From Kofleriaceae bacterium (GTDB taxonomy: Bacteria > Myxococcota_A > Polyangia > Haliangiales > Haliangiaceae): DNA of 27,249 nt. Below, one piece after another: positions 7,450 to 23,617 of this stretch (position 1 is the first letter of the stretch; every line of letters starts with the position of its first letter). The stretch covers positions 1 through 27,249 of the forward strand of contig JBKJLC010000128.1 in NCBI GenBank assembly GCA_046597055.1, in the 5' to 3' direction. The notes beneath the pieces were generated by a model. That model was given only the letters and a program-made list of their open reading frames with translations. It searched no databases and had not been told where the DNA came from. A program made the translations under genes and the position numbers.

Positions 7450-7660
7450 TGCCGCGGAGGGCACGCAGCATGCCAGGGGCGTCCGCGGCAGGCTGTGGGC
7501 TTGACGCGCCTGTGGAGAGCGCGCCCTACGCGTCGGGTGCGGCTACAGGACAGCGGGCACGTGGCGCGACTCACCACAGGGCGCTTGGAAAGCCGCGCCT
7601 CCGGGTCGTGGAGGCGGGACGCACGGGCGATGGGCGCGCCTTTCCACAAGGCCCGCAGCC
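7450..7660. repeat. Cluster of GC-rich hairpins and REP-like inverted repeats upstream of the RAYT gene
   Basis: TGCCGCGGA/TCCGCGGCA (7450-7490). Minus-strand GTAGGGCGCGCTCTCCACAGGC (7529-7508) resembles plus-strand GATGGGCGCGCCTTTCCACAAGGC (7629-7652). CGCCTCC/GGAGGCG stem (7596-7616). Confidence 0.45.
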
Positions 7661-7882: not shown

Positions 7883-8920
7883 CTACGAGGCGGGCGACGG
7901 CGCGGTCGGCGACGGTGACGACGGTGCGGGCGCGGGCGCGGGCCCGGCGGCGGTCGCGAGCTCGACGACCTCGGGGGGCGCGGCGGGCTCGCCGTAGAAC
8001 TGCTTGGACCAGCGCCGGAACAGGCCGATCGGTCCGTCGCCATCGACCAGGACCGGCGGGTTCACGTAGATCTTGTTCTCCCAGATCGGGATGTCCTGCT
8101 CGAGCTGGCGGCCGATCTCGCGCTGGAAGGCGGCGCCGACCGTGCTGGTCACGCCCTCGTTCACCATCTTGCGGACGCTGAAGGCGAACCGCAGCTCGAC
8201 GTAGTCCTCGTCGATGGTGGTGGCCGAGCTCACCAGCAGGGTCTCGACCAGGCCCCGGAACCGGCTGGTGGTGAAGCCGAAGCCGTGGGCGTACACCTCG
8301 ACCTCGCCCTTGACCTTGCCCTGCGGCGTCTTCATCGCCGTGGTCGAGGTCGCGTGGAGGATGTGGCCCAGCGTCTCGGCCCTGGTCGCCGGCATCTCCT
8401 GGGTACCGTGCAGGTACAGGAAGTGGGCCGAGTCCACCGAGTTCTCCGCCATCTCCTGGTTGTGCGTGCGGATTTTCCAGCTGCGCTTCTCGTACGTCGT
8501 CCAGTCGGCGTGGCCGAACTCGGGGAGCACCGGGACCTCCCAGCTCGGCGCGGCGCCGTCGGGGTGGAACCAGGTCATCAGCAGGCCGTTGACCTCGCGC
8601 AGCGGCCAGGTGCCGAGCTGCGCGCGCGGCGGGATCTTCTTGCCGTACGGGATCTCGCGGCACGCGCCGGTGCCGTCGAACTTCCAGGCGTGGAACGGGC
8701 ACTCGATGCAGTCGCCCTTGACCTTGCCGCCGTGCCCGAGGTGGGCGCCGAGGTGAGGACAGTGGGCGTCGAGGAGACGGGCCTCACCGCCCTCGGTGCG
8801 GAACAGGACCAGGTCTCGTCCGAAGTAGCGCAGCGGGCGCACGGCGCCGGGCTGGAGCTCGTCGGCGTAAGCAACCTGGAACCAACCGGTCGGGTAGCGC
8901 GGCATCGGGAAGCGGCTCAT
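7883..8920 (-). CDS. Rieske [2Fe-2S] non-heme iron oxygenase, KshA / Neverland (cholesterol 7-desaturase) family
   Basis: RBS AGGAG before ATG 8920. Rieske ligands CPH...CPFH, mononuclear Fe motif ENSVDSAHFLYLH, C-terminal QDIPIWENK...DGPIGLFRRWSKQFY. Confidence 0.88.
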   Translation of the reverse strand: MSRFPMPRYPTGWFQVAYADELQPGAVRPLRYFGRDLVLFRTEGGEARLLDAHCPHLGAHLGHGGKVKGDCIECPFHAWKFDGTGACREIPYGKKIPPRAQLGTWPLREVNGLLMTWFHPDGAAPSWEVPVLPEFGHADWTTYEKRSWKIRTHNQEMAENSVDSAHFLYLHGTQEMPATRAETLGHILHATSTTAMKTPQGKVKGEVEVYAHGFGFTTSRFRGLVETLLVSSATTIDEDYVELRFAFSVRKMVNEGVTSTVGAAFQREIGRQLEQDIPIWENKIYVNPPVLVDGDGPIGLFRRWSKQFYGEPAAPPEVVELATAAGPAPAPAPSSPSPTAPSPAS

Positions 8921-8943
8921 CGCGACTCCTTTTCGTTGCTGAC

Positions 8944-8957
8944 TGAAACATGTTTCA
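8944..8957. promoter_or_regulatory. KstR-like operator, site 2 (TGAAACATGTTTCA)
   Basis: Perfect 14-bp palindrome fitting TnnAACnnGTTnnA in the 70-bp divergent gap between the Rieske gene and the acyltransferase operon. Confidence 0.85.
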
Positions 8958-8990
8958 CTCGCACAGGCAAGCAGGTAGGCTCCGAAGGCC

Positions 8991-9884
8991 ATGTCGACCT
9001 CGACCAAGGAAGCCGGCCGCCTGCTGCAGTGGCTGCACCGGAGAGCGGGCGCGCCCGTCGCTGCCAGCGACCCGGGCGAGCACGATCCGATCGCGGTCGC
9101 GCAGGTCCTGCGCTTCGCCAGCAAGTTCTTCGGCCCGCGCCGCTACTTCGATCTCGACGCGCAGGGAATGGAACATGTTCCACCTACGCCCACGATGATC
9201 GTCTCGAACCACTCGGGCGGCACCAGCATCCCCGACGTGTGGGGCTTCGGCTACACCTGGTACACCCACTTCGGGCTCGAGCGCGTCATCCACCCGATGG
9301 CCCACGAGATCATCCTGTCGACCCGGATCACCGCGCGCTTCTTCGGCCGCCTGGGCGTGCTGCGCGCCGGGCGCGGCGTCGCCGCCGAGGTGCTGACCCG
9401 CTGGAAGCGCGACCTGCTGGTGATGCCCGGCGGCGATGTCGACACCTGGCGGCCCTACCGGGATCGCTACAAGGTCCAGTTCGGCGGCCGCACCGGCTAC
9501 GCGCGCTCGGCGATCACCGCCGGCGTGCCGATCGTGCCGGTCGCCAACGCGGGCGCCCACGAGACCCTGATGGTGCTCAGCGACGGCCGCGCGCTGGCCC
9601 GCCGGCTCCACCTGCACGAGCTGACCCGCGCCAACGTGTTTCCGATCCACCTGTCGCTGCCGTGGGGCCTGACCATCGGTCCGTGGCCGCACCTGCCGAT
9701 CCCCGGCAGGTTCCGCTACCGGTTCGGCAAGCCGATCGCGCCGCCGCCGCTGGCGCCGGGCGAGCTGCCGTCCGACCAGGCGGTGCGCGATCTCGACGCG
9801 ACCGTGCGGGCCGCGGTCCAGGGCCTGCTCGACGGGCTGCGCCTCGAGTCCGACGACGCGGCCAGCGCGCGGAGGGCGGCGTGA
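8991..9884 (+). CDS. Lysophospholipid acyltransferase family protein (PlsC/DGAT2-like)
   Basis: VSNHSGGTSIPD (catalytic H...D), LLVMPGGDVD, GYARSAITAGVPIVPV, RYRFGKPI. Confidence 0.85.
   Translation: MSTSTKEAGRLLQWLHRRAGAPVAASDPGEHDPIAVAQVLRFASKFFGPRRYFDLDAQGMEHVPPTPTMIVSNHSGGTSIPDVWGFGYTWYTHFGLERVIHPMAHEIILSTRITARFFGRLGVLRAGRGVAAEVLTRWKRDLLVMPGGDVDTWRPYRDRYKVQFGGRTGYARSAITAGVPIVPVANAGAHETLMVLSDGRALARRLHLHELTRANVFPIHLSLPWGLTIGPWPHLPIPGRFRYRFGKPIAPPPLAPGELPSDQAVRDLDATVRAAVQGLLDGLRLESDDAASARRAA
9169..9182. promoter_or_regulatory. KstR-like operator, site 3 (TGGAACATGTTCCA), intragenic
   Basis: Perfect 14-bp palindrome encoded as ATG GAA CAT GTT CCA, four consecutive A/T-ending codons in a GC3-rich gene. 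Confidence 0.7.
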
Positions 9885-10639
9885 CCGCGCCCGCGTATCC
9901 GCCTGGCCGGCAGCTGCTGGCCGGCAAGACCGTGCTCATCACGGCCGCGGCCGGCACCGGCATCGGCTTCGCGGTGGCCAAGCGCGCGGTCGAGGAGGGC
10001 GCGCGCGTGATGATCAGCGACGTCCACGAGCGCCGGCTCGGCGAGGCGGCCAAGGAGCTGGGCGTGCCGTTCGCGCGCTGTAACGTCGGGGTCGAGGCCG
10101 ACGTCCAGGCGCTGTGGGAAGCCGCCGGCCGCGAGCTGGGTGGGGTCGACGTGCTGGTCAACAACGCCGGCCTCGGCGCCACCGCGCCGCTGGTGGAGAT
10201 GACCGACGAGCAATGGAGCGCGGTCCTCGACGTCAGCCTCACCGGCACGTTCCGCATGATGCGGGCCGGGCTGCGCCACATGATGCCGCGCAAGACCGGC
10301 GTGATCGTCAACAACGCCTCGGTGCTGGCGTGGCGGGCCCAGGCCGGCCAGTCGGCCTACGCGGCGGCCAAGGCCGGCGTCATGGCGCTCACCCGCTGTG
10401 CCGCAGTCGAGGCGGCCCCGGCCGGCGTGCGCGTCAACGCAGTGGCGCCCAGCCTCGCGATGCACAAGCACCTGGTGAAGGTGACCAGCCAGGAGCTGCT
10501 CGACGAGCTGACCTCGCGCGAGCTGTTCGGCCGCGGCGCCGAGCCGTGGGAGGTCGCCAACGTGATCGTGTTCCTGGCCAGCGACTACGCGTCGTACATG
10601 ACCGGCGAGGTCGTGTCAGTGTCGAGCCAGCACCCGTAG
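9881..10639 (+). CDS. ipdF: Short-chain dehydrogenase, IpdF (Rv3559c)-like HIP-CoA pathway reductase
   Basis: Diagnostic TAAAGTGIG N-terminus, ISDVHERRL, NNASVLAWRAQAGQSAYAAAK (YxxxK), C-terminal GEVVSVSSQHP. GTGA overlap. Confidence 0.88.
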   Translation: MTAPAYPPGRQLLAGKTVLITAAAGTGIGFAVAKRAVEEGARVMISDVHERRLGEAAKELGVPFARCNVGVEADVQALWEAAGRELGGVDVLVNNAGLGATAPLVEMTDEQWSAVLDVSLTGTFRMMRAGLRHMMPRKTGVIVNNASVLAWRAQAGQSAYAAAKAGVMALTRCAAVEAAPAGVRVNAVAPSLAMHKHLVKVTSQELLDELTSRELFGRGAEPWEVANVIVFLASDYASYMTGEVVSVSSQHP

Positions 10640-10673
10640 CGCATCCCTCACGCATCCACGCAGGAGTCGTTCC

Positions 10674-11138
10674 ATGATCGACAAGACCGCGGTCGGCGCC
10701 GTCGGTGAGCCGTTCGAGCTCATCGTCGAGCGCGGCAAGATCGGCGAGCTGGCCCGCGCGATCGGCGCGGTGCACGCCGACCACCTGGCGACACCGGCGA
10801 TCCCGCCGCCGACCTTCTTCACCACGATGTTCCACTGGGAGCACCACCGCGCCGGCGCCAACCCGTGGCACCGGGTCGGCATGAGCGAGGAGCGCGGCAT
10901 GCACGCCGAGCAGGAGTACGTGTTTCACGGTCCGCCGCCGGCGGCCGGCACCCGGCTGACCGCGACCTCGCGCATCGCCGAGATCACCGAGAAGCAGGGC
11001 CAGCGTGGCGGCGTGCTGACCTTCGCCGTGATGGTGACCGAGCTGCGCGACGAGACCGGCCGGCTGGTCGCCGAGGCCCGGATGACCGGGGTCGAGACCG
11101 AGCGGGCGCCCGACGCCGCGCCCGAGGCGACTCGATGA
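10674..11138 (+). CDS. MaoC-like dehydratase N-terminal-type (HadA-like) hotdog protein
   Basis: VERGKIGELARAIG, PPTF, MHAEQEYVFHGPPPAAGTRL. RBS AGGAG. Confidence 0.8.
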   Translation: MIDKTAVGAVGEPFELIVERGKIGELARAIGAVHADHLATPAIPPPTFFTTMFHWEHHRAGANPWHRVGMSEERGMHAEQEYVFHGPPPAAGTRLTATSRIAEITEKQGQRGGVLTFAVMVTELRDETGRLVAEARMTGVETERAPDAAPEATR

Positions 11139-11551
11139 CGCTGGCCCCCCCGCCGCCGCGGGTGTTCGGGCCGATCACGCGCACCGACGTCGTGCGCTAC
11201 CAGGGCGCGTCGGGCGATCTCAACCCGGTCCACCACGACGAGCCGTTCGCGCGCGGCGCCGGCTATCCGGCCCCGCTGGTGGTCGGCATGTTGCCGGCCG
11301 GCGCGATGTTCGCGTGGGCCAGCGACTGGCTGGGGCCGGCCAACGTGCGGCACGTCCGGTGCCGGTGGCAGGCGCCGGTGTTCCCCGGCGACGTCCTGAC
11401 CACGACCGGCAGGGTCGCCCGCGACTACCTCGAAGCCGGCGAGCGCCGGATCGATCTCGAGCTGGCGTGCACGAAGCAGGACGGCGCGATCGCGGTACGA
11501 GGCTGGGCGACCTTCGTCGCCCCGGGTGTTCCAGATCAGGAGATGCGATGA
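11135..11551 (+). CDS. MaoC-family (R)-enoyl-CoA hydratase/dehydratase, catalytic (HadB-like) subunit
   Basis: Hydratase motif [18 protein letters not shown] (D-x4-H) and PVFPGD. ATGA overlap with the preceding hotdog gene. Confidence 0.85.
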
Positions 11552-12570
11552 AGCTCGGCTTGATGGTCGGATATTCGGGCGCCAAGGTCGCCCTCGACAT
11601 GGCGACGATCCTCGAGGCCGAGCGCCTCGGCTACGACTCGGTGTGGACCGCCGAGTCGTGGGGCTCCGATGCGGTCAGCCCGCTGGCGTGGATCGGCGCG
11701 CAGACCACGAAGATCCGGCTCGGCACCGCGATCATGCAGCTGCCGGGGCGGTCGCCGGCCAACGCGGCGATGACCGCGATGACGCTCGACGGGCTCAGCG
11801 GCGAGCGCTTCATCCTCGGCCTCGGCACCAGCGGGCCCCAGGTGGTCGAGGGCTGGCACGGCGTGGCCTGGCACAAGCCGCTGACCTGGCTGCGCGAGTA
11901 CATCACCATCGTGAAGGCGATCCTGGCCCGCGAGGCGCCGCTGGCGTTCCAGGGCGAGCGCTACCGCATCCCGTACGACGGCCCCAACTCGGCCGGCCTC
12001 GGCAAGTCGCTCAAGAGCATGGTCCACGGCCGCCGCGACATCCCGATCTACTCGGGCGCGATGGCGCCGCTCGGCCAGGAGCTGTGCGGCGAGCTGTGCG
12101 ACGGCATCCTGCTCACGTGCATGAACCCGGAGCGGCCCGAGGTGATCCTCGACCGGGTCGCCGCCGGTCGCGCCAAGGTCGGCAAGACCCTCGACGGCTT
12201 CGAGGTCGCGCCGACGGTGGCGGTCGCGGTCGGGCCCGACGTCGAGGCGCTGCGCCGACCGTTCAAGGAGCAGCTCGCCCTGTACATCGGCGGCATGGGC
12301 GCGAAGGAGAAGAACTTCTACCGCGAGTACCTGAGCCGGGTCGGCTACGAGGCCGAGTGCGCGCGCATCCTGGAGCTGTTCATGGCCGGCCAGCGCAAGG
12401 AGGCGGTCGCCGCGGTGAGCGACGCCATGGTCGACACGCTGTACTTGATCGGCCCGCCCGCGCGGATCAAGGAGCGGTTCGCGGCGTGGAAGGACGCGGG
12501 CGTGACCACGATGATCATCGGCAGTCACCAGCCCGAGGCGATCCGGCTGATGGCGGAGCTCGCGCTGTGA
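11548..12570 (+). CDS. LLM-class F420-dependent oxidoreductase, Rv3520c family
   Basis: [59 protein letters not shown]. Confidence 0.88.
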
Positions 12571-13166
12571 AGATCGGCCTGGTTGGCGGCACCGGCAAGG
12601 AAGGACGCGGCCTGGCGGCGCGCTGGGCCCGGGCCGGTCACGAGATCGTGATCGGCTCGCGCGACCCGGCGCGCGGCGACAACGCGGCCGCGGCCGACGC
12701 CGAGGTGGTGGTGCTGTGCGTACCCTACCCCGCCCACGCCACGACGGTGCGCGAGCTGGCGCCCCGGCTCGAGGGCAAGATCGTCATCGATCTGGTGGTG
12801 CCGCTGGTCCCGCCGCGCGTGACCAGGGTGGTCATCCCCGAGGGCGGCGCGGCCGCGCTCGAGGCCCAGCGCCTGGCGCCAGGCGCCCGGGTGGTCGGCG
12901 CGCTGCACCACGTCAGCTCGGTCCATCTCGGCGACCTCGAGCACCGCATGACCGGCGACGTCCTGATCTGCGGCGATGACCCGGCCGCCAAGGACACGGT
13001 GATCGCGCTGATCGCCGACCTCGGCATGCGCGGCCTCGACGCCGGGCCGCTCGCCAACGTGGTCGCGCTCGAGGCGATGACGCCGGTGCTGCTGTACCTC
13101 AACCGGCGCTACCAGCGGACCGGGCTCGGGCTGCGCATCGAGGGTCTGCCCGACGAGGCCACATGA
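12567..13166 (+). CDS. npdG: NADPH-dependent F420 reductase (F420H2:NADP+ oxidoreductase)
   Basis: [49 protein letters not shown]...[18 protein letters not shown] overlap. Confidence 0.88.
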
Positions 13167-13951
13167 TCGCGTGCGCGCCCCGGCTCGAGGCGATCGCCCT
13201 GCCCGGCCTGCCGATCGTCGGGCCCGGCGACGATCTCGCCGCGCTGATCGCGGCCGGCCTGGCGCGCGCCGCGCTCACCCTCGACGACGGCGACGTCCTG
13301 GTGGTGGCGTCGAAGCTGGTGTCGCGCGCCGAGGGTCAGTTCGTCGACCTCGGGACGATCGAGCCCTCGGCGCGTGCCCACGAGCTGGCCGCGCGCACCG
13401 GCCACGATCCGCGTCACGTCGAGCTGGTCCTGCGCGAGTCGGTCGCGCTGTCGCGCACCGGGCCCGGCGTGCTGATCGTCCGGCACCGGCTCGGCTTCGT
13501 GGTCGCCAACGCCGGGATCGACCTGTCGAACGCGGCGCCGCCGCGCGCGCTGGCCGCGGGCCGCCCCGGTCCCTGGGCCCTGACCCTGCCGCGCGCCCCC
13601 GACGCCACCGCGCAGCGGCTGTGGGCGGCGCTCGTCCCCGGGCGGCCGATCGGCATCGTCATCAGCGACTCGTTCGGACGGCCGTTCCGGCTCGGCACCG
13701 TCGGCACCGCGATCGGCGCGGCCGGGGTGCCCGCGCTGTGGGATCAGCGCGGCCGGCGCGACCTGTTCGAGCGGCCGCTCGAGCGCACCGTCACCGCGCT
13801 CGCCGATCAGGTCGCCGCGGTCGCCGACCTGGTGGCCGGTCAGGCCGCCGAGGCGCGCGGCGTGGTGCTCGTGCGCGGCCTGCGCTTCGCGGCGACCGAC
13901 GGCGGCGCCGCGGCGCTGATCCGTCCCGCGACCGAGGACATGTACGCATGA
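13163..13951 (+). CDS. cofE: Coenzyme F420-0:L-glutamate ligase (stand-alone, no nitroreductase domain)
   Basis: [56 protein letters not shown]. Confidence 0.92.
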
Positions 13952-14886
13952 CGGCCCCTCGCATCCCGCGGGTGGTCGCGCTGTCGGGCGGGATCGGCGG
14001 CGCCAAGCTCGCCGCCGGGCTGGCCGCGGCCCTGCCCGCCGGCGCGCTCACGGTCATCGTGAACACCGGCGACGACTTCGTGCACTGGGGCCTCCGGATC
14101 AGCCCCGATCTCGACACGGTGATGTACACGCTGGCCGGGCTCGCGCACCGCGAGCAGGGCTGGGGCCTCGCCGGCGAGACCTTCGCCGCGCTCGCGATGG
14201 TCGAGCGCCTCGGCGGCCCGGCCTGGTTCCGGCTCGGCGACCAGGACCTCGCGACGCACCTGATGCGCACGACCCGGCTGGCGGCCGGCGCCAGCTTGAC
14301 CGCGGTCACCGCCGAGCTGTGCGAGAGCCTGGGGGTCACCACCCGCATCCTGCCGATGTGCGACTCGCCGCGGCCGACGCTGCTCGACACCGACGACGGC
14401 ACGCTCGAGTTCCAGGACTGGCTGGTGCGCCGCCGCGGCGCGCCCATGGTGACCCGGGTGTGGTCGGCCGGGCCCGCCACGCCGACGCCGGCGGTACTGG
14501 CCGCGATCGCCGAAGCCGACGTCGTGGTCATCGGGCCGTCCAACCCCTACGTCTCGATCGATCCGATCCTCAATCTCGACGGCATGGGCGCCGCGCTCGC
14601 ACGTCGGCCGGTGGTCGCGGTCAGCCCGATCGTCGCCGGGCGTGCGATCAAGGGGCCGCTCGCCGCGATGATCCCGCGGCTGGCCGGTCGCGCCCCGAGC
14701 GCGGCGGCGATCGCCGATCACTACCGCGGGCTGATCACCGGGCTGGTGCTGGAGCACGGCGACGAGGCCCCCGCCGACCTGCGGGTGCTGACGACCGCGA
14801 CCGTCATGGCCAACGACGACGACCGGATCCGGCTCGCGCGCGAGGTGCTCGGGTTCGCCGGCGTCGCGACCGAGGTTCGGCCGTGA
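13948..14886 (+). CDS. cofD: 2-phospho-L-lactate/phosphoenolpyruvate transferase (CofD/FbiA)
   Basis: [17 protein letters not shown]...[57 protein letters not shown]. Confidence 0.93.
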
Positions 14887-15575
14887 TCGGCGGCACCTGG
14901 GCGCTGGTCCCGACCCGGTCGTTCCGGACCGGCAAGTCGCGCCTGACCGAACGCCGCCTCGGGCGTGATCGCGCGGCGATCGCCCGCGCGCTGTTCGAGG
15001 GCACCGCGGCCGTGCTGCGCCGACACGGCGGCCTCGCCGGCGTTCTGGTCGCCACCGACGGCGATGACGTCGTCACTGCCGCCCGCGGTCACGGCGCCGA
15101 GATCCTGCGCGACCCGGCCCGGCCCGTGGCAAGCCACACGACCCTGCTGGCGTCGATCATCGACCGCGGGCTGGCCGAGCTGGCCAGACGCGGCGCGGCG
15201 GCGGTGGTGGTGGTGATGGCCGACCTGCCGAGGCTCGCGGGCAGCGACCTCGACGTGCTGCTGAGCGCGCTGGCCGGCGCCGAGCTGGTGCTCGCACCCG
15301 ACCGGGCCGCGCTGGGGACCAACGCGCTCGCGATCCGCTTGCCGACGCCGATCGCGACCGCCTTTGGCAACCGCGACAGCTACCCGCGCCACCTGGCGAC
15401 CGGGCGCCGGGCCGGCGTGCGCACCGCGGTGGTCACCACCCCCGGCCTCGCGTTCGATCTCGACCTGCCCGCGGATCTCGAGGAGCTGATCACGGCGACG
15501 GGCGCGGCGCGAGATCGATCCCGCGGTGCAGCGGTGGATCGCGGTCGGTCATCCCCACCGGGAGCGCGAAGGTGA
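14883..15575 (+). CDS. cofC: 2-phospho-L-lactate/phosphoenolpyruvate guanylyltransferase (CofC/FbiD)
   Basis: LVP...[41 protein letters not shown]. The C-terminal tail overlaps the convergent gene by 86 nt. Confidence 0.88.
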
Positions 15576-16902
15576 TCGCCGCGGTGGGCGCGGTGGTTGT
15601 GTTCCGGAACCAGACCGCGTTCCGGTACTCGGGCACGATCGCCAGGTCGAGCTTACCGTCGCCATCGATGTCGCCGATGTCCATGCCGTTCCCGTTCACC
15701 GCGGCCGACGTCCACACCGGCGTCGGCGCGAAGGTGCCGCCGTCGTTGCGATAGATCTCGTTCGAGGTGCCGAAGTTGCCGCCGACCAGGATATCGAGGT
15801 CGCCGTCGTTGTCGAAGTCGCCACAGTGGGTCTCGGTCCGGTGGTGCTCGGTCTGCGGCGCCGGGTTGACCGCGAGCAACGGCGTCGGCGCGAACCCGCC
15901 GTTGCTGTTGGCGTAGATCCGCAGGAAGTCGTGGCCCGCGGTCACCAGCTCGGGCAGCGGCGAACCGGCGAGCTGGCACAGCCGCAGGCCTTCGGAACCG
16001 ACGAAGGTCGGGGTCGCCAGCGAGGTCGACGTGAAGCCCATGGTGCGATCGTTGCGGTGGACCCGGAGCCGGCGGCTGTTCACGACGTCGCCGGTGATCA
16101 GATCGAGATCGCCATCCCCGTCCAGGTCGCCCCAGTCGGCGGTCATGATGTCGTCCCCGGAGACCAGCGCCGACTGCGCCACGAAGGTGCCGCGATCGTT
16201 GAGGACGATGAAGCCCGCGGTGCCGGCGCCGAGGCGCGCGGCGACGAACACGTCGAGATCGCCGTCGAGATCGTGATCGGCCCACGCCACGTGGGTGCCC
16301 CAGAACTGGTTCACGCCGGTCTGGCTGCCGGCATCGACCAGCCCCTCCGCCGTCCGGTTGAGCACGCCCCAGCCAGAGTCGGTGACATAGGCGAGATCCC
16401 CATCACCGTCGCCGTCGTGATCGGCGACCGCCGCGTAGTTCAGGCCGGTGCGCAGGACCTCGAACACGATGTTGGTGGTGCCGTCGGACGGCACGGCGAG
16501 GAGGCCGACCGACGTCGGGAAGACCGCCATCGCGCTGCAGCCGCGGCTGGGTGTGCACGAGGTCTCGACGGCCTGCACGCAGGCGCGATCCCAGCCGAGC
16601 GCGCAGCACGCCGGGTTGGCGGCGCACACGGTCGCGACGCAGGCATCCGGGTGGGGTCCCATCGCGGGGCCCTCCAGGCACAGGCTGCGGGGGCTCGGCG
16701 GCGGGGCATCGATCTCGAGCACGTCATCGGCGTCGATGTCGCGCGCGTCGGTCTCGCCCGGGTAGCTGCAGGTGGAGTCCGCGCCGCAGACGCCGGCCAC
16801 ACCGCCTCGTTCGCAATCCTCGTCCTGCTCGCAGCGGTACTGCGCGGGACTCGGACAACCCGTGAGTGAGAGAAGCCCCAGGGCGAACCAGATCTTGCGC
16901 AC
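15490..16902 (-). CDS. Cys-rich FG-GAP/VCBS-repeat lipoprotein, copy 1
   Basis: Signal VRKIWFALGLLSLTG-C (lipobox). Two Cys-rich modules separated by an acidic linker. Five DxDxDGxxD repeats plus one degenerate repeat. The start codon (GTG 16902) is uncertain. Confidence 0.85.
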   Translation of the reverse strand: MRKIWFALGLLSLTGCPSPAQYRCEQDEDCERGGVAGVCGADSTCSYPGETDARDIDADDVLEIDAPPPSPRSLCLEGPAMGPHPDACVATVCAANPACCALGWDRACVQAVETSCTPSRGCSAMAVFPTSVGLLAVPSDGTTNIVFEVLRTGLNYAAVADHDGDGDGDLAYVTDSGWGVLNRTAEGLVDAGSQTGVNQFWGTHVAWADHDLDGDLDVFVAARLGAGTAGFIVLNDRGTFVAQSALVSGDDIMTADWGDLDGDGDLDLITGDVVNSRRLRVHRNDRTMGFTSTSLATPTFVGSEGLRLCQLAGSPLPELVTAGHDFLRIYANSNGGFAPTPLLAVNPAPQTEHHRTETHCGDFDNDGDLDILVGGNFGTSNEIYRNDGGTFAPTPVWTSAAVNGNGMDIGDIDGDGKLDLAIVPEYRNAVWFRNTTTAPTAAITFALPVGMTDRDPPLHRGIDLAPRPSP

Positions 16903-17034
16903 GAGACACTTCCACACGGCGGCCGGCCGTGCTGCCAGGGCATTCGCCGGCAACCGCCGGAAACCGGCGCGGTGCGGCCGGGAGTGGCGCCGGCCGCGCG
17001 CCTGGCCGTCGAATTGCTGAGGGCGTTCCGCCGA

Positions 17035-18438
17035 TCACGGCCGGGGCGCGAGCTCGATCCCTCGATGATGCGCCGGATCCCGGTCGGCCAGCCCGATCCC
17101 GGCCCCGAAGGTGATCGCCGCGGTGGGCCCGGCGGTCGTGTTGCGCAGCGCGAGCGGGTTGGACTGCTCTTGCGCCACGACGAGGTCGAGCCTGCCGTCG
17201 CCGTCCAGGTCGCCGATGTCGAAGGTCATCCCTGCGAGCTGGTCCCAGCTCCACGCCGGCGTGGACGGGAACACGCCGCCGTTGTTGCGGTAGATCTCGG
17301 TCTTGGTGCCGGCCCAGCCGCCGACCAGGACGTCGAGGTCGCCGTCGCCGTCGAAGTCGGCGCAGTGGGTCTCGGTGCGAAAGGCCTCGGCCGGCGCGAC
17401 CGGGTTGACCGCGAGCAGCGGCGTGGGCAGGAAGCCGTCGGCGCCGTTGGCGTAGATCCGCAGGAAGTTGCGGCCCGCGGTCACCAGCTCGGGCCGCGGC
17501 GAGCCGGCGAGCTGGCACAGCCGGAGGCCGTCCGCGCCGACGAAGGTCGGGGTCGGCAGCGCGGTGGTCGTGAAGCCATCGGTGAGATCGTTGCGGTGTA
17601 CCCGCAGGCGGTTGCCGTTGAGCACATCGCCGGTGATCAGATCGAGGTCGCCATCGCCGTCGAGGTCGCCCCAGTCGGCGGTCAGGATGTCGTCGCCGGT
17701 GACCAGCGGCGACAGCGCCACGAAGGTCCCGGCGTCGTTGCGGACCAGGCGTGACGGGCCGGCCCCGATCCCGAGGCGCGCGCTGACGAACAGGTCGAGG
17801 TCGCCGTCGCGGTCGTAGTCGGCCCAGGTGACGTGGGCGCCGTGGAACTGGGCGATGCCGGACTGGCTGCCCGCGTCAACCCAGCCCTGCGGGGTCGCCG
17901 TGCGCACGCCCCAGCCGGTCTCGCCGACGTAGGCGAGATCGCCGTCACCGTCGCCGTCGTGATCGGCCACCGCCGCATAGTTCACCTCGGTCAGCGGGAT
18001 CTCGAACAGGATGCTGGTCGCGCCGTCGGAGGGCACCCCGATGATGCCGCCCGGTGACGGGAACACCGCCATGCCGCTGCAGCTGTGCGCGGGCCCGCGC
18101 TCGCAGGAGGTCTCGACCTGCTGCACGCACGCGCGATCCCATCCCAGCGCGCAGCACGCCGGGTTGATCGCGCACACGGTCGTGACGCACGCGTCCGGGT
18201 GCGGGCCCATCGCCGGGCCTTCGAGGCAGACGTTGCGGGGATTCGCCTCGGGTCCGTCGATCGGGACCTCGACGTCGCGACCATCGGTCTCATCCGGGTA
18301 GCTGCAGGTGAGGTCGGCGCCGCAGACACCCTGGACCTCGCCACGCTGGCAGTCGCGGCTCTGCTCGCAGCGGTACGGGTCGGGGACGGGGCAACCCGCG
18401 AGTGACACGAGCATCAGGACGAGCACGTTGTTGCGCAC
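17035..18438 (-). CDS. Cys-rich FG-GAP/VCBS-repeat lipoprotein, copy 2 (tandem paralog)
   Basis: Signal VRNNVLVLMLVSLAG-C. Collinear with copy 1, sharing CLEGPAMGPHPDACV, NPACCALGWDRACVQ, ADWGDLDGDGDLDLITGDV, LRLCQLAGSP, RTETHC, HRGIxLAPRP. Confidence 0.85.
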   Translation of the reverse strand: MRNNVLVLMLVSLAGCPVPDPYRCEQSRDCQRGEVQGVCGADLTCSYPDETDGRDVEVPIDGPEANPRNVCLEGPAMGPHPDACVTTVCAINPACCALGWDRACVQQVETSCERGPAHSCSGMAVFPSPGGIIGVPSDGATSILFEIPLTEVNYAAVADHDGDGDGDLAYVGETGWGVRTATPQGWVDAGSQSGIAQFHGAHVTWADYDRDGDLDLFVSARLGIGAGPSRLVRNDAGTFVALSPLVTGDDILTADWGDLDGDGDLDLITGDVLNGNRLRVHRNDLTDGFTTTALPTPTFVGADGLRLCQLAGSPRPELVTAGRNFLRIYANGADGFLPTPLLAVNPVAPAEAFRTETHCADFDGDGDLDVLVGGWAGTKTEIYRNNGGVFPSTPAWSWDQLAGMTFDIGDLDGDGRLDLVVAQEQSNPLALRNTTAGPTAAITFGAGIGLADRDPAHHRGIELAPRP

Positions 18439-18518
18439 GAGACACTTCCACACGCCGGCGGGTCACGCGGCCAGTGCATTCGCTGGCACTCGCTGGAAAC
18501 CCGCGCGATTATTGAAGA

Positions 18519-18571
18519 AGTGCGGACTCCAGTCCTCGCAATCACCAGCGAGTGTGGACTCCAGTCCTCAC
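18519..18571. repeat. Two 21-bp palindromic direct repeats (REP-like doublet)
   Basis: AGTGCGGACTCCAGTCCTCGC (18519-18539) and AGTGTGGACTCCAGTCCTCAC (18551-18571), 19/21 identical, each with a GGACT-CC-AGTCC dyad. Directly after the cofH stop. Confidence 0.85.
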
Positions 18572-18573
18572 TT

Positions 18574-19851
18574 TCAGTCGTCGATTCTCTGAGCGACACC
18601 GCGCTCGACCGCCGCCGGTCGCCGGAGCGGGATCAGCTGGTCGCCGCCCCGCCGGGCCCGCTGGAAGCGGAACCGGGGATCGCGGGTGAGCGCGTCGTAG
18701 GTGCCGAAGGTGGCGGCCGCATCGGTGAGGCCATCGAGCGGATCGCCGGCCTGGGTCGCGTCCGCCGGCGGCACCAGCTGGTACAGCGTGGTCCGCTGGG
18801 CGGCGATCCGACCGGCGCCGCGCGCGACCCGCCGCAGCTCGGCCGGGGTCGCGACCTGACCGTGGCGGGCGCCCGCCGAGGTCGAGATGCTCTCGTTCAT
18901 CAGGGTGCCGCCGAGGTCGTTGACGCCGCACGCCAGCAGGTGCTCGGCGCCGCGCAGCCCTTCCTTTACCCACGACACCTGCAGGTTGGCGAGGTCGGCG
19001 CCGAGCATCAGGCGCGCGAGCGCGTGCGTGCGCACCACGTCGATGCCGCCCGGGCCCGGCTGCACGCCGGGCTCGGCCGCGAACAGCGGCGCCTCGGTGT
19101 GCACGAACGACAGCGGCACGAACTCGGTGAAGCCGCCGGTGTCGCGCTGGAGATCGCGCAGGCGCTCGAGGTGGCGCAGGCGATCGGCGGGCGACTCGAC
19201 GTGGCCGTACATCATCGTCGCGGTGGTGGGCAGGCCGACCTCGTGGGCGGTGCGGACCACGTCGAGCCACTCGGCGCTGGTGATGCGCCCGGGCGCGATG
19301 CGATCACGGATGGTGTCGTCGAGGATCTCGGCCGAGGTGCCGGGCAGCGAGCCAAGCCCGGCCTCGCGCAGCGCGAGCAGGTACTCGCGGATCGACAGGC
19401 GGGCGCGGTGGGCTCCGTACTGCACCTCCTCCGGCGAGAACGCGTGCAGGTGGAGCTCGGGCGCGGCCCGCTTCACCGCGCGGGTCAGCTCGACGTAGAG
19501 CATGCCGTCGATGCCCGGCGCGAGCCCGGCCTGCAGGCACACCTCGGTGGCGCCGAACGCGCGCGCCTCCAGCGCGCGGCGCACGATCTCGTCGACGCCC
19601 AGGAAGTAGCCCTGGTCGGAGCGAACGCCGCGCGAGAACGCGCAGAACTTGCACTTCTTGATGCAGACGTTGGTGAAGTTGATGTTGCGGTTGACCACGT
19701 AGGTGACGCGATCGCCGGCCTGGCGCGCGCGCAGCTCGTCGGCGGTCGCGCACAGCGCGTGGAGGTCGCCGCCGGTCGCCTCGGTGAGCGGCAACAGCTC
19801 GCGCCACGACGGTGTGTGGCCGGCCAGGCAGGCGGCGAGGATCGCTCTCAC
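18574..19851 (-). CDS. cofH: FO synthase subunit 2 (radical SAM)
   Basis: VTYVVNRNINFTNVCIKKCKFCAF (CxxxCxxC), GATEVCLQAG, HAFSPEE, PGTSAEILDD, TATMMYGHVE, FTEFVPL, QVSWVKEG, NDLGGTLMNESI. GTGA overlap with cofG. Confidence 0.93.
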   Translation of the reverse strand: MRAILAACLAGHTPSWRELLPLTEATGGDLHALCATADELRARQAGDRVTYVVNRNINFTNVCIKKCKFCAFSRGVRSDQGYFLGVDEIVRRALEARAFGATEVCLQAGLAPGIDGMLYVELTRAVKRAAPELHLHAFSPEEVQYGAHRARLSIREYLLALREAGLGSLPGTSAEILDDTIRDRIAPGRITSAEWLDVVRTAHEVGLPTTATMMYGHVESPADRLRHLERLRDLQRDTGGFTEFVPLSFVHTEAPLFAAEPGVQPGPGGIDVVRTHALARLMLGADLANLQVSWVKEGLRGAEHLLACGVNDLGGTLMNESISTSAGARHGQVATPAELRRVARGAGRIAAQRTTLYQLVPPADATQAGDPLDGLTDAAATFGTYDALTRDPRFRFQRARRGGDQLIPLRRPAAVERGVAQRIDD

Positions 19852-20945
19852 GCGCGACCGCCCGGCACCGCCGCCGCGTGCCCGGCGAGGAGCCGCGGCG
19901 CCAGCTCGGGCGCGACGAACGCCGGGCTGCGCCAGCCGTCGTGGATGGGCAGCCGCGGCGCGAGCGTGAAGCCGGCGGCGGCGCAGCTGGCGGCCAGCTG
20001 CTCGAGGTGCGGCCAGGCGTAAGCCAGGTTGATGTAGTCGGGCGTCAGCGGCGAGATGCCGCCGAGGTCGTTGATGCCGGCGGCGAGCAGCGGCGCGAGG
20101 TCGGCCGACAGGTTGGGCGGCGCCTGCACGGTGATGTCCTCGTCGAGCACCAGGCGGGCCAGCGCGATCGCGCGGGCATGCTCGTCCTCGCCTGGCTCGG
20201 GCGCGTCGGCCATGGGGGTCGCGGCGTGCGCGCGGAACCGCTGCACGATCACCTCCTGGATGTGACCGTGGCGCTGGTGCAGCGCGCGGATCGCGAGCAG
20301 CGCGTCGAGGCGCTCGGCCTCGGTCTCGCCGATCCCGATCAGGAGCCCCGACGTGAACGGGATGTGCAGCGCGCCGGCCTCCTCGATCATCGCCAGCCGC
20401 ACCGCTGGTCGCTTGTCGGGCGCGCGGTGATGAGGCTGGCCGCGCTGGCACAGCCGCGCGCTGGTGGTCTCGAGCATCAGCCCGAGGCTGGCGTTGACCG
20501 GCCGCAGCGCCGCCATCTCGTGCTCGGTGAGGATGCCGGCGTTGGTGTGCGGCAGGAGCCCGGCGGCCAGCGCCGCGCCGCACGCCCACACCAGGTACTC
20601 GACCGTGCTGGCGAAGCCCCAGCTCGCGAGCAGGGTCTGGTACGAGGGAAACACCGACTCGGGACGATCGCCCAGGCAGAACAGCGCCTCGGTGCAGCCG
20701 AGCTGACGCGCGCGCGCCAGCGATGCGGTGACCTGGTCGGGCGACATCGTGAGCGCGCCGAGATCCTTGGGCGACCGGCGAAACGCGCAGTAGTCGCACA
20801 CGTCGCGACACAGGTTGGTCAGCGGCAGGAACACCTTGGGCGAGTAGGTGATGCGGCGGCCCCACCCATGATCGCGGCGTTCGCCGGCAGCGGCGACCAG
20901 CTCGGCGGTCGACAGCGCCAGGAACGCGTGGGCCGCGTCGCTCAC
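19848..20945 (-). CDS. cofG: FO synthase subunit 1 (radical SAM)
   Basis: ITYSPKVFLPLTNLCRDVCDYCAF, GCTEALFCLGDRPE, GLLPHTNAG, SLGLMLE, PFTSGLLIGIGET, HIQEVIVQ, QAPPNL, GGISPLTPDYIN. Confidence 0.93.
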   Translation of the reverse strand: MSDAAHAFLALSTAELVAAAGERRDHGWGRRITYSPKVFLPLTNLCRDVCDYCAFRRSPKDLGALTMSPDQVTASLARARQLGCTEALFCLGDRPESVFPSYQTLLASWGFASTVEYLVWACGAALAAGLLPHTNAGILTEHEMAALRPVNASLGLMLETTSARLCQRGQPHHRAPDKRPAVRLAMIEEAGALHIPFTSGLLIGIGETEAERLDALLAIRALHQRHGHIQEVIVQRFRAHAATPMADAPEPGEDEHARAIALARLVLDEDITVQAPPNLSADLAPLLAAGINDLGGISPLTPDYINLAYAWPHLEQLAASCAAAGFTLAPRLPIHDGWRSPAFVAPELAPRLLAGHAAAVPGGRA

Positions 20946-21724
20946 GCGCCACCCGCGGTGGCGGCGGCGTCGAGAAAGGCCGGGCGCTCACCGCCGCCAT
21001 GCACGACCAGCGCGGTGCCGCTGACCCACGCCGCCAGCGGCGAGGCCAGGAACAGGCACGCGCCCGCGACGTCGTCGGGCGTGCCCATGCGCCCGAGCGG
21101 GATGGTGGCGCCGACCGCCGCGATCCCGGCCTCGCTGCCGTAGTGCAGGTGGGCCTGCTCGGTGCGGATCGGACCGGCCACGATCGCGTTCACCCGCACC
21201 TTCGGCGCCCACTCCACCGCGAGCGACTGGGTCAGGTTGATGAGGCCAGCCTTGGCCGCGCCGTACGCGGCGGTCCCCGGCGACGGGCGCAGGCCGCTGA
21301 CGCTGGCGATGTTGAGGATCACGCCCCCCCCGGCCTGGCGCTGCATCACCGCGTTGGCACGCTGGGCCAGCCACAGCGGCGCGATCAGGTTGAGCTGGAT
21401 GATCGACGCCGAGAACCGCGGCGACACCGTGGCCGCGACCACCGGCGGCGAGCCGCCCGCGTTGTTGACCAGCACGTCGAGGTGACCGTGGCGATCCATC
21501 GCCGCCGCGATCACGCGATCGAGCTGCTCGACCTCGCGCACGTCGGCGTCGACGAAGCTGGCCTGACGGCCGCCCGCGGCCGGCAGCTCGGGCGGCGTGG
21601 TGCGTCCACACACGACGACCTCGGCCCCGGCGGCGAGGAAGCGCAGCGCGATCCCGCGCCCGATGCCACGACCACCGCCGGTGATCACCACCACCTTCCC
21701 ACTCAGGTCGAGACCGTCGGCCAT
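20942..21724 (-). CDS. Short-chain dehydrogenase, Rv3549c-like (C/D-ring cluster)
   Basis: RBS AAGGAG. TGGGRGIG, NNAGGSP, SVSGLRPSPGTAAYGAAKAG, AVEWAPKVRVN, VHGGGERP. Divergent from echA20 as in M. tuberculosis. Confidence 0.85.
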   Translation of the reverse strand: MADGLDLSGKVVVITGGGRGIGRGIALRFLAAGAEVVVCGRTTPPELPAAGGRQASFVDADVREVEQLDRVIAAAMDRHGHLDVLVNNAGGSPPVVAATVSPRFSASIIQLNLIAPLWLAQRANAVMQRQAGGGVILNIASVSGLRPSPGTAAYGAAKAGLINLTQSLAVEWAPKVRVNAIVAGPIRTEQAHLHYGSEAGIAAVGATIPLGRMGTPDDVAGACLFLASPLAAWVSGTALVVHGGGERPAFLDAAATAGGA

Positions 21725-21753
21725 GGAAGCTCCTTCGCGCTGGACACCTAAAG

Positions 21754-21767
21754 TGGAACATGTTCTA
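21754..21767. promoter_or_regulatory. KstR-like operator, site 4 (TGGAACATGTTCTA)
   Basis: Fits TnnAACnnGTTnnA with one break in dyad symmetry, in the 59-bp divergent gap. TGGACA at 21741-21746 has the same spacing as at site 1. Confidence 0.85.
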
Positions 21768-21783
21768 GTCCGACCCGCAAGCG

Positions 21784-22551
21784 ATGAGCACGGGTCCAAG
21801 CATCCGCCACGCCGTCGACGACCGCGGCATCGCCGAGGTGGTCGTCGCCCGCCCTCCGGTCAACGCGCTGCGCATCGCCGACTGGCAAGGCCTCGCCGAT
21901 ACCGTCCGCGCGCTCGGCATCGATCCGCGCGTGCGCGTCGTCGTGCTCGCGGCCGAGGGCCGCGGCTACAACGCCGGCGTCGACATCAAGGAGATCCACG
22001 GCGCGGCCGACACCCACGCCGCGCTGGTCGCGGTCAACCGGGCCTGCGCGGCCGCGTTCGCCGCGGTCTACGAGTGCGAGGTCCCGGTGATCGCCGCGGT
22101 CCACGGCTTCTGCCTCGGCGGCGGCATCGGCCTGGTCGGCAACGCCGACGTCGTGATCGCATCCGACGACGCCAGCTTCGGGCTGCCCGAGGTCGATCGC
22201 GGCGCGCTCGGCGCGGCCACCCACCTGGCCCGCCTGGTCCCGCAGCACCTCATGCGCGCGCTGGTCTACACCGGCCGCCGCATCGCGGCGACCGAGCTGC
22301 ACCGGTACGGCTCGGTGCTCGAGGTGGTGCCGCGCGACCGCCTGCTGGCCGCGGCCCGCGCGGTCGCCGCCGAGATCGCGGCCAAGAGCCCGATCGCGAT
22401 CCGCGCCGCCAAGCAGTCGCTCAACGGCATCGACCCGATCGATGTCCGTCGCAGCTACCGGTACGAGCAGGGCTTCACCTACGAGCTCACGCTCGCCGGC
22501 GTCGGCGCCGAGCAGCGCGCCGCGTTCGCCGAGAAGCGGACCGACAAGTGA
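21784..22551 (+). CDS. echA20: Crotonase-family D-ring hydrolase, EchA20-like
   Basis: PPVNAL, EGRGYNAGVDIKE, AVYECEVPVIAAVHGFCLGGGIGLVGNAD, FGLPEVDRGALGAATHLARLVPQH, SYRYEQGFTYEL. Confidence 0.9.
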   Translation: MSTGPSIRHAVDDRGIAEVVVARPPVNALRIADWQGLADTVRALGIDPRVRVVVLAAEGRGYNAGVDIKEIHGAADTHAALVAVNRACAAAFAAVYECEVPVIAAVHGFCLGGGIGLVGNADVVIASDDASFGLPEVDRGALGAATHLARLVPQHLMRALVYTGRRIAATELHRYGSVLEVVPRDRLLAAARAVAAEIAAKSPIAIRAAKQSLNGIDPIDVRRSYRYEQGFTYELTLAGVGAEQRAAFAEKRTDK

Positions 22552-22594: not shown

Positions 22595-22752
22595 CCCGGT
22601 TCGCCCTGAGCGCAGCGCGAAGCGCGGAATCGAAGGGTGCCCTTCCTCCGGTGTGGCGGGCGTCCTTCGACGCCGCCCGTCGCTTCGCGCCGGGCTGCGC
22701 TCAGGACGAACGGGGGAGACGGGTCGCACCGGTACTTCGGGTCAGTCTCCCC
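22595..22752. repeat. Long imperfect palindromic repeat element between echA20 and ipdA
   Basis: GTTCGCCCTGAGCGCAGC (22599-22616) pairs with GCTGCGCTCAGGACGAAC (22694-22711) with 1 mismatch. Nested GCGAAGCG/CGCTTCGC and TCGAAGG/CCTTCGA. Adjacent GGGGAGAC/GTCTCCCC stem (22713-22752). Confidence 0.85.
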
Positions 22753-22795
22753 AGGGACGACGGGCCATGACGCGGACTCTCTGCGCAGGACATCC

Positions 22796-23617
22796 ATGAA
22801 GGACAAGCGGATCCCGGCCGAGGAGGTCGTGGCCGAGCTGCGGCCGGGCATGACGATCGGGATCGGCGGCTGGGGCTCGCGCCGCAAGCCGATGGCGCTG
22901 GTGCGCGCGATCCTGCGCTCCGACCTGAAGGACCTCACGATCGTTACCTACGGCGGCCCCGATGTCGGGCTGCTGTGCGCGGCCGGCAAGGTGCGGCGCC
23001 TGATCACCGGCTTCGTGTCGCTCGACTCGATCGCGCTCGATCCCTGCTATCGCGCGGCGCGGCAGCGCGGTGACCTCGAGGTGGTCGAGTACGACGAGGG
23101 CATGCTGCAGTGGGGGCTGTACGCGGCCGCGCTGCGGCTGCCGTTCCTGCCGACCCGGGCCGGCCTCGGCAGCGACGTGCTGACGCTGTGCCCCGAGCTG
23201 CGCACGGTCCGCTCGCCCTACCGCGACGCGCACGGCGACGGCGAGGAGCTGGTCGCGATGCCCGCGATCGAGCTCGACGTCGCGCTGTGTCACCTCAACC
23301 GCGCCGACATGGCCGGCAACGCCCAGTTCCTCGGGCCCGACCTCTACTTCGACGACCTGTATCTCGGCGCCGCGAAGCGCCGCTTCGTCTCGGTCGAGCG
23401 GGTGGTCGCCACCGAGGAGCTGCTCGCGGCCGGCTCGGTGCACACGCTGCGCATCCATCGCGGCATGGTCGACGGCGTGATCGAGGCGCCCCGCGGCGCC
23501 GCCTTCACCGAGTGCACGCCCGACTACGGCCGCGACGAGGAGCTGCAGGCCCGCTACGCCGCGGCGGCCGCCGATCCAGCCGCGTGGAACGCGTTCTACC
23601 AGGAGTACGTCGCGTGA
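22796..23617 (+). CDS. ipdA: C-ring-cleaving hydrolase subunit alpha (CoA-transferase fold)
   Basis: GMTIGIGGWGSRRKPMALVRAILRS, YGGPDVGLLC, GFVSLDS, EYDEGM, PFLPTRAGLGSDV, GPDLYFDDL. Confidence 0.92.
   Translation: MKDKRIPAEEVVAELRPGMTIGIGGWGSRRKPMALVRAILRSDLKDLTIVTYGGPDVGLLCAAGKVRRLITGFVSLDSIALDPCYRAARQRGDLEVVEYDEGMLQWGLYAAALRLPFLPTRAGLGSDVLTLCPELRTVRSPYRDAHGDGEELVAMPAIELDVALCHLNRADMAGNAQFLGPDLYFDDLYLGAAKRRFVSVERVVATEELLAAGSVHTLRIHRGMVDGVIEAPRGAAFTECTPDYGRDEELQARYAAAAADPAAWNAFYQEYVA

Follow-up and report, generated by a model that had tools for sequence, protein, structure and literature searches.

Genes for making and recharging cofactor F420 in predicted steroid-catabolic operons of a Kofleriaceae bacterium probably serve an undescribed F420-dependent step

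Introduction

In Mycobacterium tuberculosis the spacer between Rv3520c and Rv3521 holds a bound KstR site, entered with positive experimental evidence in a motif table (Kendall 2007, PMC1995591), and in the parts of the literature consulted Rv3520c is a KstR-regulon gene with no substrate assigned (regulon: PMC1995591), in agreement with the first-pass annotation of the DNA described here, which had placed it in the steroid locus without an established substrate. Here we analyse a stretch of 27,249 bases (the window), which is one whole contig (C48) of a metagenome-assembled genome (MAG) of a Kofleriaceae bacterium, 8.38 Mb in 303 contigs. In it, genes for the biosynthesis and recycling of cofactor F420, together with an LLM-class oxidoreductase of the Rv3520c subfamily, lie in two gene chains of a steroid-catabolic cluster. 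As far as the mycobacterial sources consulted go, the likeness extends to the surroundings: Rv3520c is a TIGR03559 protein, shares its KstR operator with Rv3521, adjoins ltp4/ltp3 and lies near kshA, and in the window Rv3521-like, Ltp, Ltp and KshA genes stand beside the predicted operon of the LLM. In contrast to M. tuberculosis, the cof genes and the NADPH:F420 oxidoreductase gene (Fno) share the operons of the LLM, which is their only recognisable client. In mycobacteria the F420 (fbi) genes lie elsewhere, outside the cholesterol locus; they have the fused FbiC/FbiB form, and the cell has many further F420 enzymes. One of these genes, fbiD, is Rv2983 according to the title of a cited reference.

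The second system to be compared is the HIP (rings C/D) cluster with ipdAB, ipdC, ipdF, echA20 and Rv3548c/49c. In the portions of its description that we consulted (Crowe 2017, PMC5380842), no purpose is given for a 5-oxo reduction that is afterwards undone by IpdF, and the steps of Rv3548c and Rv3549c are still to be characterised. The window resembles the KstR2/HIP cluster, to the extent that it is covered there, in that an enoyl-CoA hydratase (ECH) gene, ipdA, ipdB and ipdC are divergent from a short-chain dehydrogenase/reductase (SDR) gene, with an IpdF-like SDR nearby. It differs in that its operators are of the KstR type, the F420 genes and the LLM are interleaved with the steroid genes, and the host is a myxobacterium. 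The window operators were told from the KstR2 type by the generally known KstR2 motif.

Gram-negative F420 operons (Paracoccus, Oligotropha) are said, in work by Ney from 2017, to combine a stand-alone CofE, a split or adjacent FO synthase, Fno and LLM genes. The window has the same gene set in the same non-actinobacterial forms, judging by the parts of a review that were consulted (PMC8498797); those operons stand alone, whereas the cassette of the window is split over two steroid operons under KstR-type operators. A gene map of Sterolibacterium denitrificans shows cofC, cofD and cofE (SEDNCHOL_10763-10765) beside ACS3, steroid isomerase, ECH, SDR and acyl-CoA dehydrogenase (ACAD) genes (Olivera and Luengo 2019, PMC6678751). 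That organism is an anaerobic betaproteobacterial degrader, and the legend of the figure lists no LLM, Fno or cofGH; within the consulted text of the article F420 is mentioned in that legend only.

Neither an F420-dependent steroid step nor an F420-steroid linkage was found described in the literature searched, supplementary tables being outside its scope. In a 2021 review on F420 the words 'steroid', 'cholesterol' and 'Myxococc' do not occur, and a 2018 metagenome survey assigned steroid catabolism to Actinobacteria and Proteobacteria, with neither myxobacteria nor F420 in its main text. Each component on its own is thus already known: steroid clusters, KstR operators, and F420 operons of the Gram-negative type. 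What is new is their fusion, in which a cofactor pathway, its recycling enzyme and a single client are wired into steroid operons.

Results

Two overlapping gene chains carry a complete F420 pathway

Genes were called from the GC3 frame signal and named by Pfam and NCBIfam with curated cut-offs. The identities proposed at first pass for nine plus-strand and three minus-strand genes stood up to this comparison (scores in bits, followed by the cut-off):

8991-9884, plus strand: PlsC-type acyltransferase, heading the plus chain (PF01553, weak, 30.6)
9881-10639, plus strand: SDR, IpdF-like (PRK07831, 412 vs. 336)
10674-11138 and 11135-11551, plus strand: pair of MaoC/FAS1_DH hot-dog hydratases, MaoC1 and MaoC2 (Pfam)
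11548-12570, plus strand: LLM-class oxidoreductase, Rv3520c subfamily, the proposed F420 client (TIGR03559 F420_Rv3520c, 362.9 vs. 335)
12567-13166, plus strand: npdG/Fno, NADPH:F420 oxidoreductase (TIGR01915 equivalog, 163.9 vs. 149.8)
13163-13951, plus strand: cofE, stand-alone, 262 aa (TIGR01916, 239 vs. 181)
13948-14886, plus strand: cofD (TIGR01819, 280.5 vs. 257)
14883-15575, plus strand: cofC (TIGR03552, 120.5 vs. 105)
20942-21724, minus strand: SDR, heading the minus chain (PRK07856, 382 vs. 255)
19848-20945, minus strand: cofG, 365 aa (TIGR03550, 410 vs. 213)
18574-19851, minus strand: cofH, 425 aa (TIGR03551, 464 vs. 374)

The F420 biosynthesis set (CofC, CofD, CofE, CofG and CofH) is complete, with all five proteins above equivalog cut-offs, and every open reading frame of both chains is open. 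Four-nucleotide ATGA/GTGA overlaps make up seven of the eight plus-chain junctions, with a 34-nt gap between ipdF and MaoC1 as the exception, and the two minus-chain junctions also overlap by 4 nt, just as the chains had first been described. The name IpdF for the SDR at 9881-10639 is suggested by synteny. The cofG and cofH genes are separate and cofE is unfused, without a C-terminal domain, and therefore the genes are not of the actinobacterial FbiC/FbiB form; the bifunctional models PRK09234 and PRK13294 gave partial matches only, under their cut-offs. A promoter and terminator scan of positions 8700-22000 returned one promoter-like and one terminator-like site, about the chance level, both within the insertion of FG-GAP genes described below, a result that says nothing about internal promoters. 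A search for RNA runs covering positions 8900-15600 listed none.

By its TIGR03559 match the LLM is placed in the same NCBIfam subfamily as Rv3520c, a likeness at the family level only. Its best 120 homologues, of 7996, are environmental without exception; those with a name come from Kofleriaceae or Myxococcales MAGs. Since the superfamily mixes FMN and F420 users and the score is modestly above the TIGR03559 cut-off, the LLM could be a flavin (FMN) enzyme with which the adjoining cof genes have nothing to do. Its closest solved structures are, however, those of F420-dependent Mer (E 1e-26) and not the FMN luciferases (6e-9), none of the structures compared being of the LLM's own family. Moreover, the LLM gene is translationally coupled to Fno, and in an evenly drawn sample of 301 genomes of the phylum all 89 that have an LLM of this family also have cofD. 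We regard an FMN enzyme as highly improbable.

Each chain is headed by a KstR-type operator

The KstR operator consensus TnnAACnnGTTnnA, as published (Kendall 2007, PMC1995591), is matched at five places in the window (0.02 expected from shuffles) and at 50 in the whole genome (about 8 expected from base composition). The five sites of the window, to which no strand is given, are:

232-245: KstR-type operator TAGAACATGTTCTA, start of the Rv3521-like gene; present also in six related loci (L014, L017, L019, L022, L024, L035)
8944-8957: KstR-type operator TGAAACATGTTTCA, a perfect 14-bp palindrome, in the 70-bp divergent spacer between KshA and the acyltransferase, head of the plus chain
9169-9182: KstR-type operator TGGAACATGTTCCA, about 180 nt into the acyltransferase gene; kept in six related loci
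21754-21767: KstR-type operator TGGAACATGTTCTA, in the 59-bp divergent spacer between SDR and ECH, head of the minus chain
23585-23598: KstR-type operator TGGAACGCGTTCTA, at the 3′ end of ipdA, 16 nt before the ipdB start; position kept in relatives

A KstR-like operator at the head of each chain had been noticed at first pass, and both were recovered. The palindrome TGAAACATGTTTCA is identical in sequence and place in L014, L017, L019, L022, L024 and L035, the SDR/ECH spacer carries an operator in 10 related loci, and all five operator positions of the window recur in relatives. The two intragenic operators (9169 and 23585) may act as additional repressor sites, or as regulated promoters inside the operons.

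Elsewhere in the genome, sites of the T[AG][AG]AAC..GTT type are concentrated on contigs C1, C31, C70, C117, C161 and C298. Three of these (C1, C117 and C298) encode KstD-like, FadD, ACAD, P450 and HsaA/D/E/G-like proteins, an Mce-type transporter and a second KshA. On C1, a TetR protein (TetR_N and TetR_C_20) with an operator on both sides has KstR (NF033703) as its best NCBIfam match, and is taken as a distant KstR relative because it scores 107 bits vs. a cut-off of 280. Since operators cluster with steroid genes and with this KstR-like TetR, a KstR-like steroid regulon is predicted for the genome, to which both F420 chains belong by position.

The same region of C1 (about 8300-16300) has a KstD-like gene divergent from the KstR-like TetR, followed by an Mce-type transporter (ABC ATPase, two MlaE permeases and MlaD proteins). 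We note the latter as a candidate steroid uptake system in a myxobacterium.

The cassette fills a convergent junction that relatives have with and without it

The LLM-npdG-cofE-cofD-cofC genes, facing cofH-cofG, form what we call the cassette. Of 41 genomes searched, which reach from the genus to the class, 10 have cofD, 10 the LLM and 12 a close ipdB. Eight of the 17 genomes of the genus have ipdB, and the same eight have LLM and/or cofD, the two single misses of LLM or cofD falling in a 1,770-contig assembly and at a contig end. The other nine have none of the three, and because of this the whole cluster is an accessory island in the genus. Steroid genes and cassette are in full synteny in G003, G004, G008, G009, G012 and G023, in the assembled part of G007, and on a public MAG contig (L035). 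The linkage is thus conserved in seven relatives and L035, and the other arrangements described below keep the operators; lack of such conservation had been named at first pass as an outcome that would speak against a role in steroid metabolism.

In G029, ipdF-MaoC1-MaoC2 faces the SDR convergently across 54 bp, and the operators are retained. In the window, LLM-npdG-cofE-cofD-cofC facing cofH-cofG fills exactly this ipdF-MaoC-MaoC/SDR junction. Comparison of the window with G029 and G026 thus shows a ready-made cassette present in one state of the junction and absent in the other.

Independent rearrangements in other families retain the tie to the operator, which lies directly upstream of LLM-npdG-cofEDC in G032 and G207 and heads P450-LLM2-cofG-cofH in G124. 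Three different arrangements (f1, f4 and f12) each put a KstR-type operator before an LLM or cof operon. In G124 and G207 the cassette is about 3 kb from an IpdF-like SDR and about 20 kb from ipdAB, and in nine further genomes of their family cofD and ipdB are 17-22 kb apart on one contig.

Within the 301-genome sample, cofD was found in 92 genomes, the TIGR03559 LLM in 89 (88 above cut-off) and ipdB in 85. Both ipdB and cofD are present in 77 genomes; 8 have just ipdB, 15 just cofD, and 201 lack both. The ipdB orthologues are 50-74% identical, and in several families every sampled genome has one; the count of 85 in 301 suggests that steroid ring degradation is far commoner in the phylum than the searchable literature indicates. 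In four genomes of other classes that were examined, the cof genes do not adjoin ipdAB, and in eight the best TIGR03559 matches (37-49% identical) lack ipd, Ltp and KshA orthologues alongside. Physical linkage of cof and steroid genes is therefore peculiar to this class, and TIGR03559 membership in those other genomes is no evidence for an identical role.

The LLM is the only recognisable client of a single F420 pathway

As the first-pass annotation had proposed to check, the genome was searched for other cof copies and F420 enzymes. By tblastn of all window proteins, with which a cofD family search agrees, cofC, cofD, cofE, cofG, cofH, npdG and the LLM are present in one copy each in the 8.38 Mb. 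One other PF00296 (luciferase-like) protein is encoded, on C247, and is of MsnO8 type, not of F420 type. The four PNPOx_N matches are PdxH, a Pyrid_ox_like protein, an FMN-type protein and a 145-aa protein under the F420 PPOX cut-off, and Pyridox_ox_2 matches one protein, on C158. The family search found no FrhB-type protein. PF04075 (Ddn-type F420H2 reductases) had no match, a result that is uninformative since the model was silent in 14 of 14 control genomes as well. No other protein of the 94%-complete MAG reached an F420-specific family cut-off. Two flavoproteins were ambiguous, one from C5 and the one from C158; because the former is present in G011, G026 and G029 and the latter in ten genomes, all of them genomes where cofD was not found, neither can be F420-dependent. 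Within the limits of a MAG of this completeness, the LLM is therefore, by family assignment, the only recognisable F420 client besides Fno.

These results bear on the explanation that enzymes elsewhere in the cell draw F420 from the cof genes (or FO, in the case of photolyase) and that the position of these genes in the steroid cluster is irrelevant to its use. Such users could have escaped us, as the genome searches miss some F420 and FO users, photolyase was outside their scope, the silence of PF04075 says nothing and the genome is only 94% complete. Against this stand the lack of any other protein at an F420-specific cut-off and the persistence of both ambiguous flavoproteins in cofD-less relatives. 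In addition, the nine genus members without the cof, LLM and ipdB markers indicate that F420 is dispensable for the core metabolism of the lineage. A housekeeping role is improbable on this evidence.

Origin of the contig

GC content of the window is about 73%, and its nearest public contigs and proteins are labelled as Myxococcales, Kofleriaceae, Polyangiaceae or Myxococcota MAGs. On other contigs the genome encodes giant WD40 proteins as well as sigma-54 activators that carry FHA domains. The possibility that C48 is a stray actinobacterial fragment was considered and rejected because relatives carry the same cluster on contigs of 87, 88 and 355 kb; contamination is further countered by the regulon motif and the steroid genes on other contigs, alongside sigma-54 activator and WD40 genes.

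Cassettes outside steroid clusters and the case for a steroid role

Taking the arrangement as a whole, we think it somewhat more probable than its competitors together that the cassette, with its enzymes for making and recharging F420 and its one client, serves an undescribed F420-dependent step in steroid degradation. A number of observations weigh against this reading. The ipd cluster occurs without LLM and cofD in G026 and G029, which belong to another family of the same order, and 8 of the 85 ipdB-positive genomes of the phylum sample have no cofD; the odds ratio of 129 for ipdB and cofD is overstated, since it treats related genomes as independent. The same cassette is found in four genomes where ipdB was not found (G039, G138, G267 and G331). 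In three of them (G138, G267 and G039) it has the same internal architecture and stands alone among unrelated flanks, and at the G039 locus no operator is present. Outside the phylum, eight loci of Pseudomonadales MAGs (L056, L064, L068, L071, L077, L081, L086 and L101) have npdG-cofE-cofD-cofC-cofG-cofH followed by two or three different LLM genes, the last of which is 50-52% identical to the LLM of the window; no steroid genes are nearby, and one such genome has no ipdB. The LLM itself, 28 bits above the TIGR03559 cut-off, is a divergent member of its family, and the MAG (G000) has a completeness of 94% and a contamination of 7.6%.

Several of these observations would suit a self-sufficient mobile cassette. 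Its LLM would use a substrate other than a steroid, such as some different lipid or a xenobiotic, and the unit would have landed in a permissive junction of the accessory steroid island, to be inherited and lost with it but of no service to it. The lone cassettes of G039, G138 and G267 and those of the Pseudomonadales fit such hitch-hiking, as does an island found in only 8 of the 17 genus genomes, and a convergent junction is a neutral landing site. On the other side, arrangements f1, f4 and f12 all have their LLM or cof operon behind a KstR-type operator, and the 4-nt coupling of the cassette to MaoC2 and to the SDR implies selection for co-expression. Moreover, cofD accompanies ipdB in 77 of 85 genomes, and G039, although it has no ipd genes, retains KshA (63% identical), ACADs and an Ltp pair (75%) in addition to the cassette, with many KstR-type operators in the genome, i.e., a KstR-type regulon. 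Actinobacterial relatives of the LLM are likewise found behind KstR operators: on a contig of Actinocorallia sp. (L095, 9952-11977) an LLM 47% identical to ours has a perfect KstR operator 36 bp upstream and an alpha/beta hydrolase gene after it. This pair, which is outside any steroid cluster, looks like a small satellite of a KstR regulon. We judge hitch-hiking to be rather unlikely, though the most serious of the competing explanations.

The claim made at first pass, that F420 is made and reduced on demand for steroid metabolism, is upheld only in part. The co-operonic position behind KstR-type operators, the sole cof copies, the conserved linkage and the LLM as sole recognisable client speak for it. 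A strictly steroid-specific reading is opposed by the cassettes of G039, G138 and G267, where ipdB was not found, by those of the Pseudomonadales, and by the steroid clusters of G026 and G029 without cassette.

Flanking genes of the window

The chains are embedded in the following steroid genes:

2-1222, plus strand: Rv3521-like DUF35/ChsH2-type protein (Pfam/NCBIfam)
1219-2241, plus strand: Ltp-type thiolase-like protein (PRK07937)
2238-3395, plus strand: Ltp-type thiolase-like protein (PRK08313)
3406-4581 and 4578-5666, plus strand: two acyl-CoA dehydrogenases (Pfam/NCBIfam)
7883-8920, minus strand: KshA-type Rieske 3-ketosteroid 9-alpha-hydroxylase oxygenase (PF19298 KshA_C, 131.8 bits, and a Rieske domain)
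21784-22551, plus strand: ECH, EchA20-like (PRK07938)
22637-23617, plus strand: ipdA (Pfam/NCBIfam)
23614-24351, plus strand: ipdB (Pfam/NCBIfam)
24351-25442, plus strand: ipdC-like NMO (Pfam/NCBIfam)
25439-26314, plus strand: ECH (PRK08290)
26314-27249, plus strand: ACAD, cut by the contig end (Pfam/NCBIfam)

Both the Rv3521-like/Ltp/Ltp/ACAD block (2-5666) and the synteny of the ECH-ipdA-ipdB-ipdC block are kept in relatives. KshA starts with an ATG at 8920, preceded by AAAGGAG. By family-level matches, the aerobic 9,10-seco gene set is represented in the cluster by KshA, IpdAB, the IpdC-like and the EchA20-like proteins, and elsewhere in the genome by KstD-like and HsaA/D/E/G-like proteins, FadD and Mce-type uptake genes.

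Between cofC and cofH lie two tandem genes of a different kind:

15490-16953 and 17035-18453, minus strand: FG-GAP/VCBS-repeat proteins (Pfam)

The two are 67% identical to each other, and a third paralogue on contig C65 is 42-43% identical. The first of them converges with cofC in an 86-nt overlap. The pair is missing in all eight related loci that cover the cofC/cofH junction, where cofC directly meets the convergent cofH; it is an insertion private to this genome and lies outside the cassette.

The region between the ACAD pair and KshA (5717-7500) encodes a GNAT acetyltransferase, which scores 224 bits vs. a cut-off of 210 for ArsN1b (arsinothricin resistance), and, on the minus strand, a weak match (29.7 bits) to an IS200-type Y1 transposase. 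By tblastn, no homologue of the GNAT gene was found at this interval in any related locus; in G003 and G023 ACAD and KshA are only about 120-150 bp apart.

Discussion

The mechanism that we propose takes the cassette as a portable unit occupying the convergent junction between two steroid-catabolic operons with KstR-type operators. Its halves would be, on one side, the Rv3520c-family LLM, Fno/NpdG and CofE-CofD-CofC and, facing them, CofH-CofG, each coupled translationally to a steroid operon as its 3′ end. A steroid-derived ligand would release the KstR-like repressor, and each chain would then be transcribed as one message. Derepression would thereby lead to joint expression of KshA, the C/D-ring genes, the F420-building enzymes, the exchanger of hydride between NADP(H) and F420, and one F420-dependent enzyme. 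FO would be made by CofG/H and converted to F420 by CofC/D/E, Fno would connect F420 to NADP(H), and the LLM would transfer hydride to or from a steroid-derived intermediate.

Most likely the LLM would reduce a ketone or an activated C=C bond with F420H2 that Fno makes from NADPH. This direction (NADPH to F420H2 to substrate) would be the simpler one because Fno is the only F420-reducing enzyme recognised among the families searched. Alternatively, an alcohol might be oxidised with F420 and the hydride handed by Fno to NADP+; the F420/NADP couple is nearly isoenergetic, which would permit the reverse direction.

Two leads to the substrate can be drawn from gene content. The first is the 5-oxo group of HIP in C/D-ring degradation, as the LLM shares its predicted operon with the IpdF-like SDR. 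The second, which we consider somewhat more likely, is the side-chain or early-ring part of the pathway, because G039 keeps the cassette with KshA, ACADs and the Ltp pair and has no ipd genes, and because the M. tuberculosis LLM adjoins Rv3521-ltp4-ltp3. The gene content of G039 at the same time argues against a ring-C/D role, which counts against the steroid reading in the form tied to the ipd genes. As G026, G029 and 8 of 85 ipdB-positive genomes manage without cofD, the LLM step would not be essential to C/D-ring degradation.

Carried further, and only tentatively, the data would allow that bacterial sterol catabolism has a widely conserved but overlooked accessory step, hydride transfer by an F420-dependent LLM of the Rv3520c family, common to Myxococcota and Actinobacteria and including the orphan gene of M. 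tuberculosis. Such a step would most likely go with the Rv3521/Ltp3/Ltp4/KshA part of the pathway (e.g., unsaturated or C24-branched side chains), or alternatively be that of the HIP 5-oxo reductase.

Two questions become testable at the bench through this locus, namely how F420 is used in non-actinobacterial bacteria and which reaction Rv3520c-type enzymes catalyse; the LLM, Fno and cof genes under a steroid operator make a clean expression set for such assays. Rv3520c-type LLMs have been placed in KstR regulons without a substrate since 2007, and a natural 'minimal system' of this kind implies an enzyme worth carrying a whole cofactor pathway for in steroid use. As to what F420 does beyond Actinobacteria and methanogens, this genome, having just one recognisable client, links the cofactor to one pathway. 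If the wider, tentative reading of a widely conserved sterol step is true, steroid use would be a main reason why these non-actinobacterial lineages keep F420.

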